DNA of 64,000 nt, from NCBI RefSeq assembly GCF_988242995.1, contig NZ_OZ547043.1; one strand, written 5' to 3'. The translations under genes and the position numbers were made by a program. The notes beneath the pieces are model-generated. The model ran no database searches. It was not told where the DNA came from and saw only the letters and a program-made list of their open reading frames with translations. Below, in pieces: positions 1 through 14,018 of the stretch. The number at the start of each line of letters is the position of its first letter. Positions within the stretch are counted from its first letter, which is position 1.

Positions 1-2361
<2,361 letters not shown>

Positions 2362-2388
2362 GTAACTACCGTCGCACGAACCAGGAAA

Positions 2389-2413
2389 GCCCGATAAGCG
2401 TTGCGCATCGGGC
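2389..2413. other. GC-rich stem-loop (GCCCGAT..ATCGGGC) between convergent ascB and higA-like gene; possible terminator or REP-like hairpin
   Basis: 7-bp perfect inverted repeat with 11-nt loop read directly; no clear U-tract. Confidence 0.3.
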
Positions 2414-2439
2414 AATCTTGGGTTTGGCATCAGTCAAAA

Positions 2440-2859
2440 TCAAAGAAACCATTCCGGCTTAACGCCAAATCGGGCTGAAAGTGCCTTAATGTGGGATATC
2501 GTCAGGGATCGTTGCCCAGACAAAATCTGACTGACCAGAGATTTAGAGCCGATTTCGTTCTTCAAATCCGCATAGGTCAAATTATGTTGATCAATCAGCG
2601 TACGAAGTAACGCCACGCCAACCGGCATTGCTGCAACGGCTTTGTCGAACTCTGCAAACTTTTCGTTATTGTTTTCATATTCTGCAATGCGGCTCGCCAG
2701 AAAGTCGATAAGTGGATTAGTATCATCTTCTTCAATCAAATATTCGACCAGTTCCAGTGCTTCACGATAATCATCTTCTGAGTCACTGCCTCCCAGAAAG
2801 GGGACTGCATTGACCAGTTCTCTTGTTGCTTTAACAGCGCGTGCAGCATTAGCAGTCAT
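2440..2859 (-). CDS. HigA-like antitoxin (Xre-type HTH DNA-binding protein)
   Basis: 139-aa ORF; C-terminal HTH (SLVSQILSGQRSLTISHIKALSARFG); resembles E. coli HigA/YgjM from memory; start overlaps upstream toxin stop by 4 bp. Confidence 0.75.
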   Translation of the reverse strand: MTANAARAVKATRELVNAVPFLGGSDSEDDYREALELVEYLIEEDDTNPLIDFLASRIAEYENNNEKFAEFDKAVAAMPVGVALLRTLIDQHNLTYADLKNEIGSKSLVSQILSGQRSLTISHIKALSARFGVKPEWFL

Positions 2860-3167
2860 TCTTTGTTCTCTCTGTAGTAACGTGTCAGTTTGTCATACTC
2901 GGCGTGATTAGTTATGTGCTTCACAAAGAACCGCTTATTAACAAAGTTTATGTAGGCAATAACCCTAAGATTGTTCCCGCCGACATCCAGAACGTACCAT
3001 TTATTGCGATATTTAAAATTGTCGAGGTTGGGAAACGCCGTTCGCATTTCTTCTGGCGTAGAAAAATCCGTTTCCTTAATAACCCGATACAATGAGTGTA
3101 GAGCCAGAGCGTCGTTAGGATATTTGCGCGCACACTCTTCAAATGGCGCTTTCGAAATGATGTGCAT
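2856..3167 (-). CDS. HigB-like toxin (RelE/ParE superfamily mRNA interferase)
   Basis: 103-aa ORF; translation MHIISKAPFEECARKYP...FPNLDNFKY...VGGNNLRV resembles E. coli HigB/YgjN; toxin-first order with 4-bp overlap to antitoxin is typical of higBA. Confidence 0.75.
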   Translation of the reverse strand: MHIISKAPFEECARKYPNDALALHSLYRVIKETDFSTPEEMRTAFPNLDNFKYRNKWYVLDVGGNNLRVIAYINFVNKRFFVKHITNHAEYDKLTRYYRENKE

Positions 3168-3248
3168 TTTAACTTCCTTATTAGCGCCTGAATGACTAAA
3201 CCTGGACTACCATTCCTTCGGATTTATTTTTCTATAGTAGTTGATCAC

Positions 3249-3277
3249 ACGGGTGTTCACAATATGTAAACACCCGT
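3249..3277. promoter_or_regulatory. Inverted repeat ACGGGTGT-N13-ACACCCGT upstream of higB-like gene; candidate operator or hairpin
   Basis: Perfect 8-bp arms read from sequence, in the 166-bp spacer between hycI stop and higB-like start. Confidence 0.3.
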
Positions 3278-3333
3278 CTACACGTCACAATTGCACGTCC
3301 AAATTCCAAAACGTGAACATGTTTGTCTACGAA

Positions 3334-3804
3334 CTACTCTTCTTCCACCGCTAACTGCGCGAATCCGCCGTTCCCTTCCCAGCCTTCCAGCCGTTGATAA
3401 ACGGTTTCTACCGCATCTTTAATCGGCTGGGTCATCGGGTAGTAAAAGCCGACGATATCCGGCTGGATGCCGAGAAAAATCACTTCGCCAATATCTTCTT
3501 TTAACTGGTCGATAAGGTAGTTCAGCGGCATGTTATGGGTAGTCATCATAAACATCTCGGCGATATCATCCGGGTCGATTATGCGGATCTCGCCGGGGTT
3601 TAGCCCCATATCCGTGGCGTCGACAATCAGCAGTCGCGTAGGGCGCAGTTCACGGATGGCGACGATGTCGTTTTCCGGTGCACTACCGCCGTCAATCACC
3701 ACCCAGTGACCTTTCGGCGCGGCGGCGCACTTTTCCGCCAGTAGCGGGCCTGCGCCATCATCGCCCATCATGCTATTGCCAACACAGAGTAAAACGTCAG
3801 TCAC
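3334..3804 (-). CDS. hycI: Hydrogenase 3 maturation endopeptidase
   Basis: 156-aa ORF; translation [20 protein letters not shown]... matches HycI. Confidence 0.95.
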   Translation of the reverse strand: MTDVLLCVGNSMMGDDGAGPLLAEKCAAAPKGHWVVIDGGSAPENDIVAIRELRPTRLLIVDATDMGLNPGEIRIIDPDDIAEMFMMTTHNMPLNYLIDQLKEDIGEVIFLGIQPDIVGFYYPMTQPIKDAVETVYQRLEGWEGNGGFAQLAVEEE

Positions 3805-4207
3805 GCAATCTCCTCACCATCAAATAGATGGCGTTTTCCTGATGAATATCATGCAGCATACTTAACAGCATTGTACTCCATTCCTTCTGCTGCGAAGTTT
3901 GCGCTGCCCGGGCTTTATCGAATGCGTTGGCCAGCATCGGCACATGGTTAATGTCGATGACGATCTCACCATATTTCGGCACGCCTTCCATTTTGCGGCG
4001 GGCTTCGCTGCCCGCCTCCAGAGTGGCAATCCATGCCAGATATTCATCCCACGGACAGGTGAGCGCCGCTTCCAGGCAATCGATAACCCCAAGGTGGTGA
4101 CCAATCGCCAGGCTGTAATAGACCACCTGCTGCGCCTCGGCGGGCGTGGCATCGTTCTCATCAATAAATTTACGGCTCAGTTGACTGAACACCACCTTTT
4201 CACTCAT
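3797..4207 (-). CDS. hycH: Formate hydrogenlyase maturation protein
   Basis: 136-aa ORF matching HycH; 8-bp overlap with hycI. Confidence 0.93.
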
Positions 4208-4971
4208 CGGATACGCGCCTCTTCAACAACATGATTCAGATGGCTGACAATCTCGTTCAGACGCGGATCGTTTTCCGCTTCCAGCCAGCGTGCAACCTGT
4301 TCTTCGCCCTGCCCTAACTGTGTCAGGAAGTCATCGGCAATCTGACGACCGTAACGATAACCTGCCAGGCGGCGTGCTTCGCGATCCACTTTCACGCGCA
4401 GCGGCTGCACCATATCGCCATGCAGGATCTCCGCCGGTTGTTCATCCTGCTCACCCGGCCCACGGGCGTGAATTTTCTGCTCCAGCAGGCCGAGCGCCAT
4501 TGCAAAGCCGTATAGCGTAGCGGCAGGCGTTGGCGGGCAGCCAGGGATGTAGACATCTACCGGGACGATTTTATCCGTACCGCCCCACACGCAGTAGAGA
4601 TCGTGGAAGATCCCGCCACTGTTACCGCAGGCACCGTAGGAGATACAGATTTTCGGGTCCGGCGCGGACTGCCACGCACGCAGCGCAGGGGATCGCATTG
4701 CACGGGTGACCGCGCCGGTAAACAGTAAAATATCCGCATGACGCGGTGAAGGAACGACTTTAATGCCGAAGCGTTCTGCATCAAACAGCGGCGAAAGCGT
4801 GGCGAAAATTTCGATTTCGCAGCCGTTGCAGCCGCCGCAGTCCACGCGGTAAACGTAGGCAGAACGTTTGATTTTTTTCAGTAACGACGCCTTCATGCTG
4901 GCGATGGATTCATCCACCGTCATCGGGACCGGAATGCCGTTGGCGTCACGGGGGCCTAATAAATTGCTCAT
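4204..4971 (-). CDS. hycG: Hydrogenase 3 small subunit (NuoB-like)
   Basis: 255-aa ORF; Fe-S cysteine motifs; synteny. Confidence 0.93.
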
Positions 4972-5513
4972 CAGATGGCCTCTTTCATATGGCGAGTCAG
5001 TTCAATACGGTCGGACGGCACCAGACATTTCTGGCGCTTACATTCCGGGCAAGTCTCAAAGCTTTCGCGGTGGTTTTCCGCGCGGCTGTCGCCGTTGTGC
5101 TTAAGCAGCGCAATGGCGTAGTCGATCTCTTTCTGAACGGCGAAAGGACGATTGCAGACGCGGCAGTTGCACAGCGCGAAGCGGGACTGTTGCAGGAAGT
5201 CTTCTTTCTTCCACACCGCCAGTTCGTACTCTTGCGACAGTTTGATCGCCGCCGTCGGGCAGACTTCTTCGCAGCGTCCACAGAAGATGCAGCGTCCAAG
5301 ATTGAACTCCCACGCAAGCTCTCCTGTGGCGAGGTCGGTTTCAACCGTTAAGGCGTTTGACGGGCAGGCATTGACGCAGGCCGCGCAGCCGATGCACTGC
5401 TGCGGGTTCTGCTCTGGCTTACCACGGAAGTTTTTATCAACCGCAATCGGCTCCAGCGGATAAGACGAGGTCGCCGTGCCGGTTTTGATGACTTTTTTGA
5501 TAAAGGTAAACAT
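4971..5513 (-). CDS. hycF: Formate hydrogenlyase iron-sulfur subunit (2x[4Fe-4S] ferredoxin-like)
   Basis: 180-aa ORF with CxxCxxCxxxCP motifs. Confidence 0.93.
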
Positions 5514-5522
5514 GGCGATTCC

Positions 5523-7232
5523 TTATTTCAGCGGCGAGTTTTTACGCTCAATGCTGTAACGCTCGAGTTCTTTGTACGGCACCACTTTGCTCTTCTTCTT
5601 ACGCACATCGACCACGGTCATGCGGTCGGTACAGGAGTAGCAAGGGTCCAGGCTACCGATAATCAGCGGCGCATCGGAAACGGTGTTGCCGCGCAGCATG
5701 TAGCGCAGGGTCGGCCAGTTCGCGTAGGTCGCCGCACGGCAGCGCCAGCGGTACAGCTTCTGGTTGTCGCCGGTCATGCTCCAGTGGATATCGTCGCCGC
5801 GCGGCGCTTCGGCAAAGCCCAGCGCGAAACGGTGCGGAATGTAGGTAAAGCCTTCCACCATCAGCGGGCCGCCCGGCAAGTTATCCAGACCGTAATCGAT
5901 CATATTCAGCGCGGTATAGACTTCGTTGATACGCACTTTCAGACGGGAAATAACGTCGCAGCCCTGCTCGCTGTGGACTTCCATTGGCAGCAGGCCATAA
6001 CCAACAAACGGGTGATCGGCACGGGTATCACGGGCGTGACCGCTGGCACGGACCATCGGGCCAACGTTACTGAAGTCGCGAGCGATTTCCGGATCCAGAC
6101 GACCAATGCCGACGGTGCGCTGTTCCATGTTCGGTGTGCTCAGCAGCACATCCACCAGCTCCTGCACTTCACGACGCATCTGCTGTGCCAGTTGACGGGT
6201 CTGGATCATGTCATCTTTCAGCAGATCGCGACGAATCCCGCCGATCAGGTTCAGGCCGTAGGTTTTACGTGCACCGGTAAGGATCTCTGCCATTTTCATG
6301 GAGGTTTCACGCACGCGGAAGAACTGCATAAAGCCGGAGTCGAAGCCGGTAAAGTGACAGGCGAGGCCGAGGTTGAGCAGATGCGAGTGCAGGCGTTCTA
6401 CCTCCAGCAGAATGGCGCGGATCATCTGCGCACGTTCTGGCACCTGAATACCCATCGCGTTTTCCACCGACGTGGTGTAGGCGGTGCTGTGAGCAAAGCC
6501 GCAGATCCCGCACACACGGTCAGAGAGGAAGGTCACTTCGTTGTAACCCATGCGGGTTTCCGCCAGTTTTTCCATGCCGCGATGGACATAGAACAGGCGG
6601 TAGTCGGCGTCGATAATGTTTTCGCCATCGACGAACAGACGGAAGTGACCCGGTTCGTCGGAAGTGACGTGCAGCGGACCAATCGGCACGACGTTGTTTT
6701 TCTTGTCGCCCAGTTCGTTGATGAACTCGTAGGTTTCAGCATCGGTAGTCGGTGCCGGACGTTGACGATAATCCATGCTGTCTTTACGCAGCGGATAAAG
6801 TTCATCCGGCCAGTCATCCGGCAGCACCAGACGACGTTCATCCGGCAGACCAACCGGAATCAAACCGTACATATCGCGCACTTCGCGCTCGCCCCACACC
6901 GCCGCCGGAACGCGCGGCGTCACGGACGGATACTCCGGTTTGTTGGCGTCAACTTCGACGCGAACCGTAATCCAACACTTAGTGCCCTTCTCCATCGACA
7001 GCACGTAGTAAACGGCGTAATGACCATTCAGTTTGCGTTCGTCGTTGCCAAACAGCACCGACAGCCAGCCACCCTGTTTGTAGTAAAGAAACTCCACTAC
7101 TTCCGGCAGATAGTTCACCTTTACGGTGACAGTCAGCTGATCTTTGGTCTGCCAGGCGTGGTCCAGCACGACGCCCGGAAATGCCTCATTCAGCGCGGCG
7201 AGATAATGTTGACCTAATTTTTCTTCAGACAT
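5523..7232 (-). CDS. hycE: Hydrogenase 3 large subunit (NiFe)
   Basis: ORF 5523..7253; start taken at MSEEKLGQHY (569 aa) matching HycE; NiFe large-subunit C-terminal DPCxxC motif. Confidence 0.93.
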   Translation of the reverse strand: MSEEKLGQHYLAALNEAFPGVVLDHAWQTKDQLTVTVKVNYLPEVVEFLYYKQGGWLSVLFGNDERKLNGHYAVYYVLSMEKGTKCWITVRVEVDANKPEYPSVTPRVPAAVWGEREVRDMYGLIPVGLPDERRLVLPDDWPDELYPLRKDSMDYRQRPAPTTDAETYEFINELGDKKNNVVPIGPLHVTSDEPGHFRLFVDGENIIDADYRLFYVHRGMEKLAETRMGYNEVTFLSDRVCGICGFAHSTAYTTSVENAMGIQVPERAQMIRAILLEVERLHSHLLNLGLACHFTGFDSGFMQFFRVRETSMKMAEILTGARKTYGLNLIGGIRRDLLKDDMIQTRQLAQQMRREVQELVDVLLSTPNMEQRTVGIGRLDPEIARDFSNVGPMVRASGHARDTRADHPFVGYGLLPMEVHSEQGCDVISRLKVRINEVYTALNMIDYGLDNLPGGPLMVEGFTYIPHRFALGFAEAPRGDDIHWSMTGDNQKLYRWRCRAATYANWPTLRYMLRGNTVSDAPLIIGSLDPCYSCTDRMTVVDVRKKKSKVVPYKELERYSIERKNSPLK

Positions 7233-12897: not shown

Positions 12898-14018
12898 TGC
12901 GTTTTGTTGATGAATATCGCTCGCCGGAACAGGTGATGCAGTTAATTGAGCATCTGCGCGAACGTGCTTCACATCTCTCTTACACCGCCGAACGCCCTCT
13001 GCGGATTATGGAAGTGTGCGGTGGTCATACCCACGCCATTTTTAAATTCGGCCTCGACCAGTTGCTGCCGGAAAACGTTGAGTTTATCCACGGTCCCGGT
13101 TGCCCGGTGTGTGTACTGCCGATGGGTAGAATCGACACCTGCGTGGAGATTGCCAGCCATCCGGAAGTCATCTTCTGTACCTTTGGCGACGCCATGCGCG
13201 TGCCGGGGAAACAGGGATCGCTGTTGCAGGCAAAAGCACGCGGTGCCGATGTGCGCATCGTTTACTCGCCGATGGATGCGTTGAAACTGGCGCAGGAGAA
13301 TCCAACCCGCAAAGTGGTGTTCTTCGGCTTAGGTTTTGAAACCACCATGCCGACGACGGCCATCACTCTGCAACAGGCGAAAGCGCGTGATGTGCAGAAT
13401 TTTTACTTCTTCTGCCAGCATATTACGCTTATCCCGACGCTGCGCAGTTTGCTGGAACAGCCGGATAACGGTATCGACGCGTTTCTTGCGCCCGGTCACG
13501 TTAGTATGGTTATCGGCACTGATGCCTATAATTTTATCGCCAGCGATTTTCATCGTCCGCTGGTGGTCGCTGGTTTCGAACCCCTTGATCTACTGCAAGG
13601 CGTGGTGATGCTGGTGGAGCAGAAAATAGCGGCCCACAGCAAGGTAGAGAATCAGTATCGTCGGGTGGTGCCGGATGCCGGTAACCTGCTGGCGCAACAG
13701 GCGATTGCCGATGTGTTCTGTGTCAACGGCGACAGCGAATGGCGCGGCTTAGGCGTGATTGAATCTTCTGGTGTACACCTGACGCCGGATTATCAACGAT
13801 TCGATGCCGAAGCGCATTTCCGCCCGGCACCGCAGCAGGTCTGCGATGACCCGCGTGCGCGTTGTGGCGAAGTATTAACGGGCAAATGTAAGCCGCATCA
13901 ATGCCCGCTATTTGGTAACACCTGTAATCCTCAAACCGCGTTTGGTGCGCTGATGGTTTCCTCCGAAGGAGCGTGCGCCGCGTGGTATCAGTATCGTCAG
14001 CAGGAGAGTGAAGCGTGA
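12897..14018 (+). CDS. hypD: Hydrogenase maturation factor
   Basis: 373-aa ORF; CGGHTH and CPVC motifs. Confidence 0.93.
   Translation: MRFVDEYRSPEQVMQLIEHLRERASHLSYTAERPLRIMEVCGGHTHAIFKFGLDQLLPENVEFIHGPGCPVCVLPMGRIDTCVEIASHPEVIFCTFGDAMRVPGKQGSLLQAKARGADVRIVYSPMDALKLAQENPTRKVVFFGLGFETTMPTTAITLQQAKARDVQNFYFFCQHITLIPTLRSLLEQPDNGIDAFLAPGHVSMVIGTDAYNFIASDFHRPLVVAGFEPLDLLQGVVMLVEQKIAAHSKVENQYRRVVPDAGNLLAQQAIADVFCVNGDSEWRGLGVIESSGVHLTPDYQRFDAEAHFRPAPQQVCDDPRARCGEVLTGKCKPHQCPLFGNTCNPQTAFGALMVSSEGACAAWYQYRQQESEA

Follow-up and report, generated by a model that had tools for sequence, protein, structure and literature searches.

A toxin-antitoxin gene pair between ascB and hycI

The window analysed here is a stretch of 64,000 nucleotides of contig NZ_OZ547043.1 (NCBI RefSeq assembly GCF_988242995.1), and the element in question is a pair of genes at positions 2,440 to 3,167, between ascB (plus strand, stop at 2361) and hycI (minus strand, 3334..3804). 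An earlier note, written from the sequence alone, had described two overlapping minus-strand open reading frames (ORFs) of 103 and 139 aa as a HigB/HigA-like toxin-antitoxin module, and the ORF listing reproduces this anatomy exactly: the higB-family toxin gene precedes the higA-family antitoxin gene, both start with ATG, and the two share the 4 bp ATGA. The pair very probably constitutes an intact HigBA-family toxin-antitoxin operon with a putative operator of its own, a judgement that excludes the molecular target of the toxin. The whole window is 100% identical to the chromosome of Escherichia coli 19KM1831 (NZ_CP151026.1), a dog rectal isolate from Switzerland, in which RefSeq already names the two products 'HigB family toxin' (WP_000547555.1) and 'HigA family antitoxin' (WP_000126294.1). 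That such a pair exists here is thus nothing new, and it is an unexceptional representative of a well-known family; its family, anatomy and strain variability, and the deletion scar that takes its place in strain K-12, are settled.

The family assignment stands on a significant HigB-family match. In the profile search that the earlier note had proposed, the toxin matched Pfam HigB_toxin (PF09907) with E=4.6e-23 over model positions 4–73 of 74, and residues 85–138 of the antitoxin matched HTH_3 (E=7.9e-9). Residues 1–100 of the toxin align with the solved K-12 HigB (5IFG_A, E=7.4e-22) and residues 9–138 of the antitoxin with the solved K-12 HigA (5IFG_B, E=2.5e-35), which makes the antitoxin a homologue of K-12 HigA. 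Since both proteins match Pfam families as well as solved K-12 structures, the ORFs are not chance ones. The antitoxin consists of an N-terminal toxin-binding and dimerization domain followed by a C-terminal Xre-type helix-turn-helix (HTH) domain with the recognition stretch GSKSLVSQILSGQRSLT. The module therefore has the traits of PF09907 modules with a K-12-type HigA, namely the toxin profile, a toxin-first operon, a two-domain antitoxin and a (putative) palindromic site in the promoter. NCBIfam provided no family for the toxin and only a chance-level match for the antitoxin (16.9 bits against a cut-off of 156), and Rfam gave no match in 2200–3500 at E≤1.

In the working that we propose, a HigA dimer would bind the toxin through its N-terminal domain, by analogy with the solved K-12 complex and with work on SehB of Salmonella, and the C-terminal HTH would bind the operator and repress the operon, for which the K-12 complex and the published SehB work again serve as models. 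Loss of HigA would release a growth-arresting toxin. The overlap of the higA start codon with the higB stop codon implies that translation of the antitoxin gene would be coupled to that of the toxin gene. The module's own promoter-like site, with its -35 box inside the single palindromic operator, would drive the operon, and the hairpin common to ascB and higA would close it. The features are collected in Table 1.

Table 1. Features of the ascB–hycI interval in the window
Feature	Position	Strand	Basis
higB-family toxin gene	2856..3167	-	ORF, PF09907, 5IFG_A, SehA residues, RefSeq WP_000547555.1
higA-family antitoxin/repressor gene	2440..2859	-	ORF, HTH_3, 5IFG_B, RefSeq WP_000126294.1
ATGA overlap, higA start codon on higB stop codon	2856..2859	-	sequence and ORF coordinates
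Putative HigA operator core, GTTTACA-TAT-TGTGAAC (minus-strand reading)	3255..3271		single copy in the module; design common to relatives
Extended palindrome, ACGGGTGTTTACA-TAT-TGTGAACACCCGT, 13-nt arms, 3-nt spacer	3249..3277		repeat search, 92% complementary
Promoter-like site: -35 TTGTGA (3257–3262), 17-nt spacer, -10 TACTAT (3234–3239)	3234..3262	-	read by eye
Shine-Dalgarno-like AAGGAAG, with its end 5 nt upstream of the higB start codon	3173..3179	-	sequence
Spacer from hycI stop to higB start, no intrinsic terminator predicted	3168..3333	-	terminator scan, alignment
Hairpin between convergent ascB and higA, GCCCGAT...ATCGGGC, likely two-way terminator	2381..2421		repeat search, RNA fold

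Relatives of the module and the possible target of the toxin

Resemblance without identity to K-12 HigB/HigA, as claimed in the earlier note, was confirmed (38.8% identity for the toxin and 46.7% for the antitoxin), with one refinement: judged by sequence, the closest studied relative is Salmonella SehA/SehB, together with a plasmid- and phage-borne clade, and not K-12 HigBA. Identity to SehA/SehB, whose sequences were taken from an S. Infantis contig annotated with the LT2 tags STM4031/STM4030, is 57.3% for the toxin and 44.6% for the antitoxin; it rises to 67–69% and 71% for copies in Salmonella prophages and to 76.7% and 74% for the copy in Cronobacter phage JK004. A protein search returned 170 relatives, the nearest outside E. 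coli being those of Klebsiella aerogenes, Kosakonia, Cronobacter and Mixta (76–78%). Scanning one genome per species gave 53 loci across Enterobacterales, of which that of Leclercia was the closest (80%) and none belonged to an Escherichia species other than E. coli. Relatives were present on 1,041 records of a plasmid collection, 531 of them at 60–80% identity; most of the records came from Klebsiella (653), and one example lies on an IncFIB/IncHI1B plasmid. IMG/VR added 14 viral contigs, several of them 84–104 kb long. These plasmid, prophage and viral-contig copies place the clade mainly on mobile elements, with the E. coli copy as a chromosomal member at a fixed site. Judging by these nearest relatives, which large plasmids, prophages and phage-like contigs of Enterobacterales carry, the module would have originated as a stabilizing (addiction) module.

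The closest copies outside E. coli are those on plasmids of Klebsiella, Enterobacter and Leclercia (for example WP_011251285.1/WP_011251286.1, on IncFIB/IncHI1B), together with those of prophages and phage-like contigs, with 67–79% toxin identity. They share with the window module a 139-aa antitoxin, an identical GSKSLVSQILSGQRSLT in most cases and the operator type GTT[T/C]ACA-N3-TGT[A/G]AAC. However, they are mobile and usually carry two operators, at 18 and 56 nt from the ATG, whereas the E. coli copy occupies a fixed chromosomal site and has one operator at 87–92 nt and about 40 nt of extra leader. In Salmonella enterica prophages, the higBA copies (67–69%; at around 3400–5700 of the four compared segments) are found in regions with genes for Cro/YdaS-like and HTH regulators, a slot that prophages often use for accessory genes. 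HigB/HigA of Proteus vulgaris Rts1 goes by the same name as the window pair, also has its toxin gene first and has the fold of the RelE superfamily. Rts1 HigB, however, belongs to PF05015 according to the table of a 2025 mBio survey, while the Pfam scan of the window toxin gave PF09907 only; it is also reported to be ~25% identical to SehA (PMC12817084), and its antitoxin has the two domains in the opposite order (PMC7160566). The tad-ata 'higBA' of IncC plasmids (PMC8265657) was set aside as a relative, as its genes differ in size (351 and 303 bp); its closest characterized relative in that study is Acinetobacter pAB120 HigBA (PMC8265657).

SehA/SehB (STM4031/STM4030.S) resembles the window module in belonging to the same Pfam family, in its 103-aa toxin and in its toxin-first, overlapping gene order. 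SehB has the same two-domain layout as the window antitoxin, and the operators follow the same 7-3-7 palindrome design. The recognition stretches differ (SLVSQ in the window, SNVSN in SehB), as do the half-sites (GTTTACA and GTTTTCA), the number of operators (one and two) and the locus (ascB–hycI and fdhE–yiiD). With identities of 57% and 45%, and with operator, recognition stretch and locus all different, the module is not an orthologue of sehAB. The K-12 pair (YgjN/YgjM; PDB 5IFG and 6KML, Shigella 5YCL) likewise shares gene order, overlap and operator design with the window pair and aligns over its full length, but differs in operator bases, recognition stretch and locus (fadH–rlmG).

These two relatives, which are the two PF09907 toxins studied so far, imply different targets. 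A 2026 paper in Nucleic Acids Research found SehA to lack endoribonuclease activity and a conserved RelE-type active site, and described it as an inhibitor of ribonuclease III (RNase III) and not a cutter of messenger RNA (mRNA) (PMC12817084). Toxicity of SehA requires Y53, D61, H88, Y91, K93, T95, Y97 and Y98, most of them in the C-terminal helix (PMC12817084 and its preprint). Our alignment shows every one of the eight in its place in the window toxin, whereas K-12 HigB keeps four and has N61, F93, V97 and H98 at the others. The C-terminal segment of the window toxin, HAEYDKLTRYYRENKE, is also nearly the same as that of SehA, HAEYDKLTAYYRGNKE. Given 57% against 39% identity and eight against four residues kept, we rate a SehA-like action above a K-12-like one: the likeliest target of the window toxin would be that of SehA, with inhibition of RNase III, to which we give about an even chance. 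The properties specific to SehAB-type toxins, binding to the double-stranded RNA-binding domain of RNase III and a block of ribosomal RNA processing, would, judging by these residues, extend to the window toxin.

The same operon could instead encode a toxin that acts as K-12 HigB does, entering the A site of the ribosome to cut mRNA under translation, and that leaves RNase III alone; we regard this as a serious though somewhat less probable reading. The two toxins share a Pfam family and align from end to end, K-12 HigB (YgjN) cleaves only translated mRNA in vivo (PMC2814082), and the 2025 mBio survey classes PF09907 under ribosome-dependent mRNA degradation. The RNase III mechanism, for its part, comes from one laboratory's work on SehA, a protein only 57% identical to the window toxin. 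Nevertheless, identity to K-12 HigB is just 38.8%, the residue pattern and the almost identical C-terminal helix follow SehA, and the SehA study saw neither endoribonuclease activity nor a conserved RelE-type active site (PMC12817084). The first SehAB paper (De la Cruz 2013, PMC3868539) is marked as retracted and serves us for background, without counting as evidence. To test the RNase III mechanism beyond Salmonella, one could conveniently turn to a strain with the module, for example Nissle 1917.

Putative operator and promoter, and possible transcription from hyc

A single copy of the operator core occurs in the 64-kb window, where 0.02 would be expected, and its right arm forms the -35 box of the promoter-like site. 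In a survey of ~50 loci from other genera and elements, nearly all carried a palindrome GTTnnCA-N3-TGnnAAC upstream of the toxin gene, usually as two sites that end ~50–57 and 12–19 nt upstream of the start codon of the toxin. In K-12, the promoter of higBA contains GTTGCCA-ATC-TGGCAAC and a second, imperfect copy, and that of sehAB has GTTTTCA-ACT-TGAAAAC twice; SehB is reported to bind two palindromes over the -35 and -10 boxes of the sehAB promoter (PMC7160566). Across the ~50 loci, the central dinucleotide of the half-site tracks the recognition stretch of the antitoxin. Antitoxins with GSKSLVSQILSG(Q/K)RSLT (SLVSQ), at >25 loci of the window's clade, go with GTT[T/C]ACA; those with GSKSNVSNILNGRR(A/S)LT (SNVSN), at 10 loci of the SehB clade, with GTTTTCA; GSKSMVSRVLSGKRKLT (SMVSR) of K-12 with GTTGCCA; and GKKSLVSRILNGQRTLT (KKSLVSR), at 2 loci, with GTTTCCA. 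It is mainly because of this co-variation that we call the palindrome a putative HigA operator. The family-wide motif, with its tracking central bases, offers a simple and testable rule for HigA cross-regulation between modules.

In the aligned leaders of the relatives, the right arm of the first site provides the -35 box TTGTAA, followed after 17 nt by TATAGT and then by the second site. The promoter-like site in the window aligns with this TTGTAA-17-TATAGT position and is probably its counterpart. The second operator site, which comes right after the -10 box in nearly all relatives, has decayed in the E. coli module (3168–3233, set against 3960–4000 of four compared segments), whose leader has gained ~40 nt relative to the relatives before AAGGAAG.

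The earlier note had also raised the possibility of read-through from hycI, as the module is co-directional with the hyc operon, and the terminator scan leaves room for it: no intrinsic terminator was predicted between the hycI stop and higB. The hairpin downstream of higA (-22.3 kcal/mol, z=-2.1) is also present in K-12, where it directly follows hycI. Read-through from hycI into higBA is plausible, given that no terminator was predicted before higB and that the hairpin that follows hycI in K-12 lies past higA here. It would not be needed for expression, since the module has a promoter-like site and an operator of its own.

Going further, higBA might be mainly a passenger of hyc: transcripts running on from hycI under fermentative, formate-induced conditions would then supply its mRNA and tie toxin and antitoxin levels to anaerobiosis. 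The shared direction, the distance of only 166 nt to the end of hycI, the lack of a predicted terminator and the displaced hairpin all fit, and so do strains that have kept the antitoxin gene alone (described below): the higBA promoter is deleted there, and upstream transcription is thus the only evident source of higA mRNA. We nonetheless consider it rather unlikely that hyc is the main driver. A promoter-like site and a putative operator belong to the module itself, and co-transcription of both genes would not by itself free the toxin. Folded as RNA, moreover, the extended palindrome gives a 13-bp GC-rich hairpin between hycI and higB (-21.5 kcal/mol, z=-4.3, no U-tract after it) that could impede read-through.

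Distribution, deletion history and possible roles

The presence/absence comparison across E. coli suggested in the earlier note was carried out on 5,426 complete genomes and showed the locus to be variable. We detected higB in 1,091 genomes (20.1%), always on the chromosome, in single copy and 95–100% identical, and higA in 2,508 (46.2%). If every higB carrier also has higA, ~1,417 genomes (26%) carry higA without higB, and ~2,918 (54%) have neither gene. All 1,091 higB copies cover ≥80% of the gene, and among the copies listed, every one is annotated as a toxin gene and not as a pseudogene. Toxin carriers include Nissle 1917 (higB 98.1% identical) and some O145 and O111 strains; UTI89 and the sequence type 131 (ST131) strain EC958 have only the antitoxin gene, and O157:H7 and K-12 have neither. 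The proposal of a paralogous, strain-variable module thus held for the variability, but no co-resident paralogue was found: in 19KM1831, the fadH–rlmG site, the higBA locus of K-12, is empty, with a gap of 117 bp (12957–13075 of the compared segment), so that the two higBA modules are alternatives within the species and are not co-resident in the window's genome. The CFT073 ΔhigBA mutant of Norton & Mulvey (2012) does not test the ascB–hycI module, as its primers match the fadH–rlmG locus. A survey of adherent-invasive E. coli reports a lone higA at fadH–rlmG in CFT073 and NRG857c; the ascB–hycI locus is not in that survey's list.

In many strains, although not in the window, a gene for a 253-aa protein (orf253, WP_001026446.1) lies between hycI and higB; in the avian pathogenic E. 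coli (APEC) strain E19057, it occupies 3077–3838 of the compared segment. In E. coli, 1,463 genomes carry it at full length, its alleles differ by ≤16% in protein sequence, and its product has a signal-peptide-like N-terminus and no match in Pfam, PHROG or PADLOC. We rejected orf253 as a third component of the module, given that it was found only beside the E. coli copies and never beside the relatives in other genera. The window's arrangement, higBA without orf253, was found in 380 genomes.

The junctions of several deletions could be mapped. In the UTI89 type, a truncated orf253, of which approximately 60 codons from the start are kept, runs into the last ~25 nt of higB; in the L725 type, orf253 is kept, and 35 nt past its stop, a 23-nt filler leads into the last ~25 nt of higB. 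Both have lost the promoter and operator but kept the translation start of higA. In K-12, which according to the earlier note has no gene between ascB and hycI, the equivalent of ~2434–3331 of the window is indeed missing, but the gap is not a site that was never occupied. Its 158-bp spacer fuses codons ~2–7 of orf253 to the last ~4 codons and stop of the same gene at a common GGGATGT, and then joins CTGATGCCAAA, a sequence that carrier strains have just beyond the stop codon of higA. The fused ends of orf253, together with the junction to sequence past the higA stop, identify the K-12 ascB–hycI spacer as a scar of two deletions. The scar lies at 1653–1720 of the compared K-12 segment, with GGGATGT as the microhomology.

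The module is part of an old E. coli islet beside hycI, in the order orf253–higB–higA, which several independent deletions have eroded, the toxin gene going first. In strain GmF052 (1–2330 of the compared segment), the islet is complete but the asc operon is missing in its entirety, and a gene for a 142-aa hypothetical protein lies there between hydN and higA. The window type did not find support as a simple deletion of orf253, since its leader and spacer (3171–3331) show only ~60% similarity to those of strains with orf253, although the genes themselves agree at ~96%; for the ~35 nt that follow the stop codon of hycI, no match turned up among the sequences compared, and a plasmid source for 3171–3331 was not found. 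Right after ascB, K-12 (1563–1607 of the compared segment) and the APEC strain also have GCCGGATGCGGCGTGAACGCCTTATCCGGCC, which by the REP consensus we take to be a repetitive extragenic palindromic (REP)-like element, and which has no counterpart in the window (2362–2370). With intact, antitoxin-only and deleted states and mapped junctions at one fixed site, the locus lends itself to studying whether the retention of lone antitoxins has a cause.

One and the same HigA protein is encoded by the window strain, APEC E19057, an O145 strain, UTI89 and L725, whose genes differ at 6–11 synonymous sites. Between the window and the APEC strain, higA shows 10 synonymous and 0 non-synonymous codon differences, and between two antitoxin-only strains 9 and 0, a pattern that speaks for selection on higA, although the strains compared are few and some of the differences may be older than the deletions.

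Several observations count against a functional SehA-like operon as proposed above. For higB, the comparison of the window with the APEC strain gives 7 synonymous and 4 non-synonymous differences, and this larger amino-acid change, together with the loss of higB in 80% of genomes, would fit weak or no selection for the toxin. A consensus promoter scan reported no minus-strand promoter in the leader, so that the promoter-like site stays a putative one, read by eye and from the alignment with relatives. Regulation may also be weak or altered, given that the only operator is 87 nt away from the ATG and that relatives have two, both nearer to it. Lastly, our literature search found no paper or experiment on the ascB–hycI higBA, and we infer toxicity, neutralization, operator binding and target.

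Taken further, these points would make the module a decaying relic, intact on paper but with a weak or unexpressed toxin and no current role, which persists since losing the antitoxin first would be harmful. To the absence of higB from 80% of genomes, the decayed second operator and the greater amino-acid change of higB, this account can add at least four independent deletion types and, as a weak point, the mild toxicity of SehA in E. coli claimed in the retracted paper (PMC3868539). We find it doubtful, since all 1,091 higB copies have ≥80% coverage and 95–100% identity, with no pseudogene among the copies listed, all eight SehA residues are kept, and the operator, the -35 and -10 boxes and the Shine-Dalgarno sequence are intact.

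It is equally doubtful that the pair, or the lone antitoxin, serves in conflicts with mobile elements, either through abortive infection of phages or through anti-addiction, with chromosomal HigA neutralizing and repressing the higBA of incoming plasmids and prophages (67–79% identical). This idea draws on matches of the toxin to the PADLOC model PD-Lambda-2_A (1.2e-15) and of the N-terminal part of HigA to PD-Lambda-2_B (2.4e-14, covering positions 9–115 of 402 only). PD-λ-2, one part of which is HigB-like, has been validated by experiment as a defence system (Vassallo et al. 2022, PMC9519451); its first gene is of the HigB_toxin family and its second starts like HigA, as in the window pair. 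However, PD-λ-2B, which continues into a C-terminal peptidase domain (profile length 402), is the toxic component of that system, and defence also requires a third gene. The Pfam scan found no peptidase domain in the 139-aa window antitoxin, and downstream of higA there are only the hairpin and convergent ascB, with no third component. Without peptidase fusion and third gene, the module is a relative of PD-λ-2 and not a member.

For a conflict role speak also the relatives in prophage regions with Cro/YdaS-like and HTH regulators and on phage-like contigs, the operator type of the mobile relatives, which is that of the E. coli module, their recognition stretch, which matches that of E. coli HigA fully or almost so, and the ~1,417 genomes that keep an intact higA without higB, with the antitoxin protein identical across lineages. 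Yet toxin-first decay alone predicts lone antitoxins without any benefit, cross-neutralization would have to work at 71–74% antitoxin identity, and the antitoxin-only strains have lost the module's own promoter. A combined reading, in which the toxin would be a SehA-type RNase III inhibitor and, separately, the lone HigA of about a quarter of the genomes would act as chromosomal immunity against incoming higBA, seems more improbable still. Under it, lone HigA would neutralize and repress the higBA of Klebsiella- and Enterobacter-type plasmids, phage-like elements and prophages, and whether an E. coli lineage carries higA would have a bearing on which mobile elements can become addictive in it.

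Some minor observations concern the genomes and collections used. In 19KM1831, an extra gene for a 513-aa hypothetical protein lies between ygjK and fadH, and ygjJ is a pseudogene. In PLSDB, a 4.9-Mb chromosome of E. coli is listed among the plasmids (record NZ_CP134663.1), and the phage collection contains the Salmonella Infantis whole-genome contig AFYI01000005.1.

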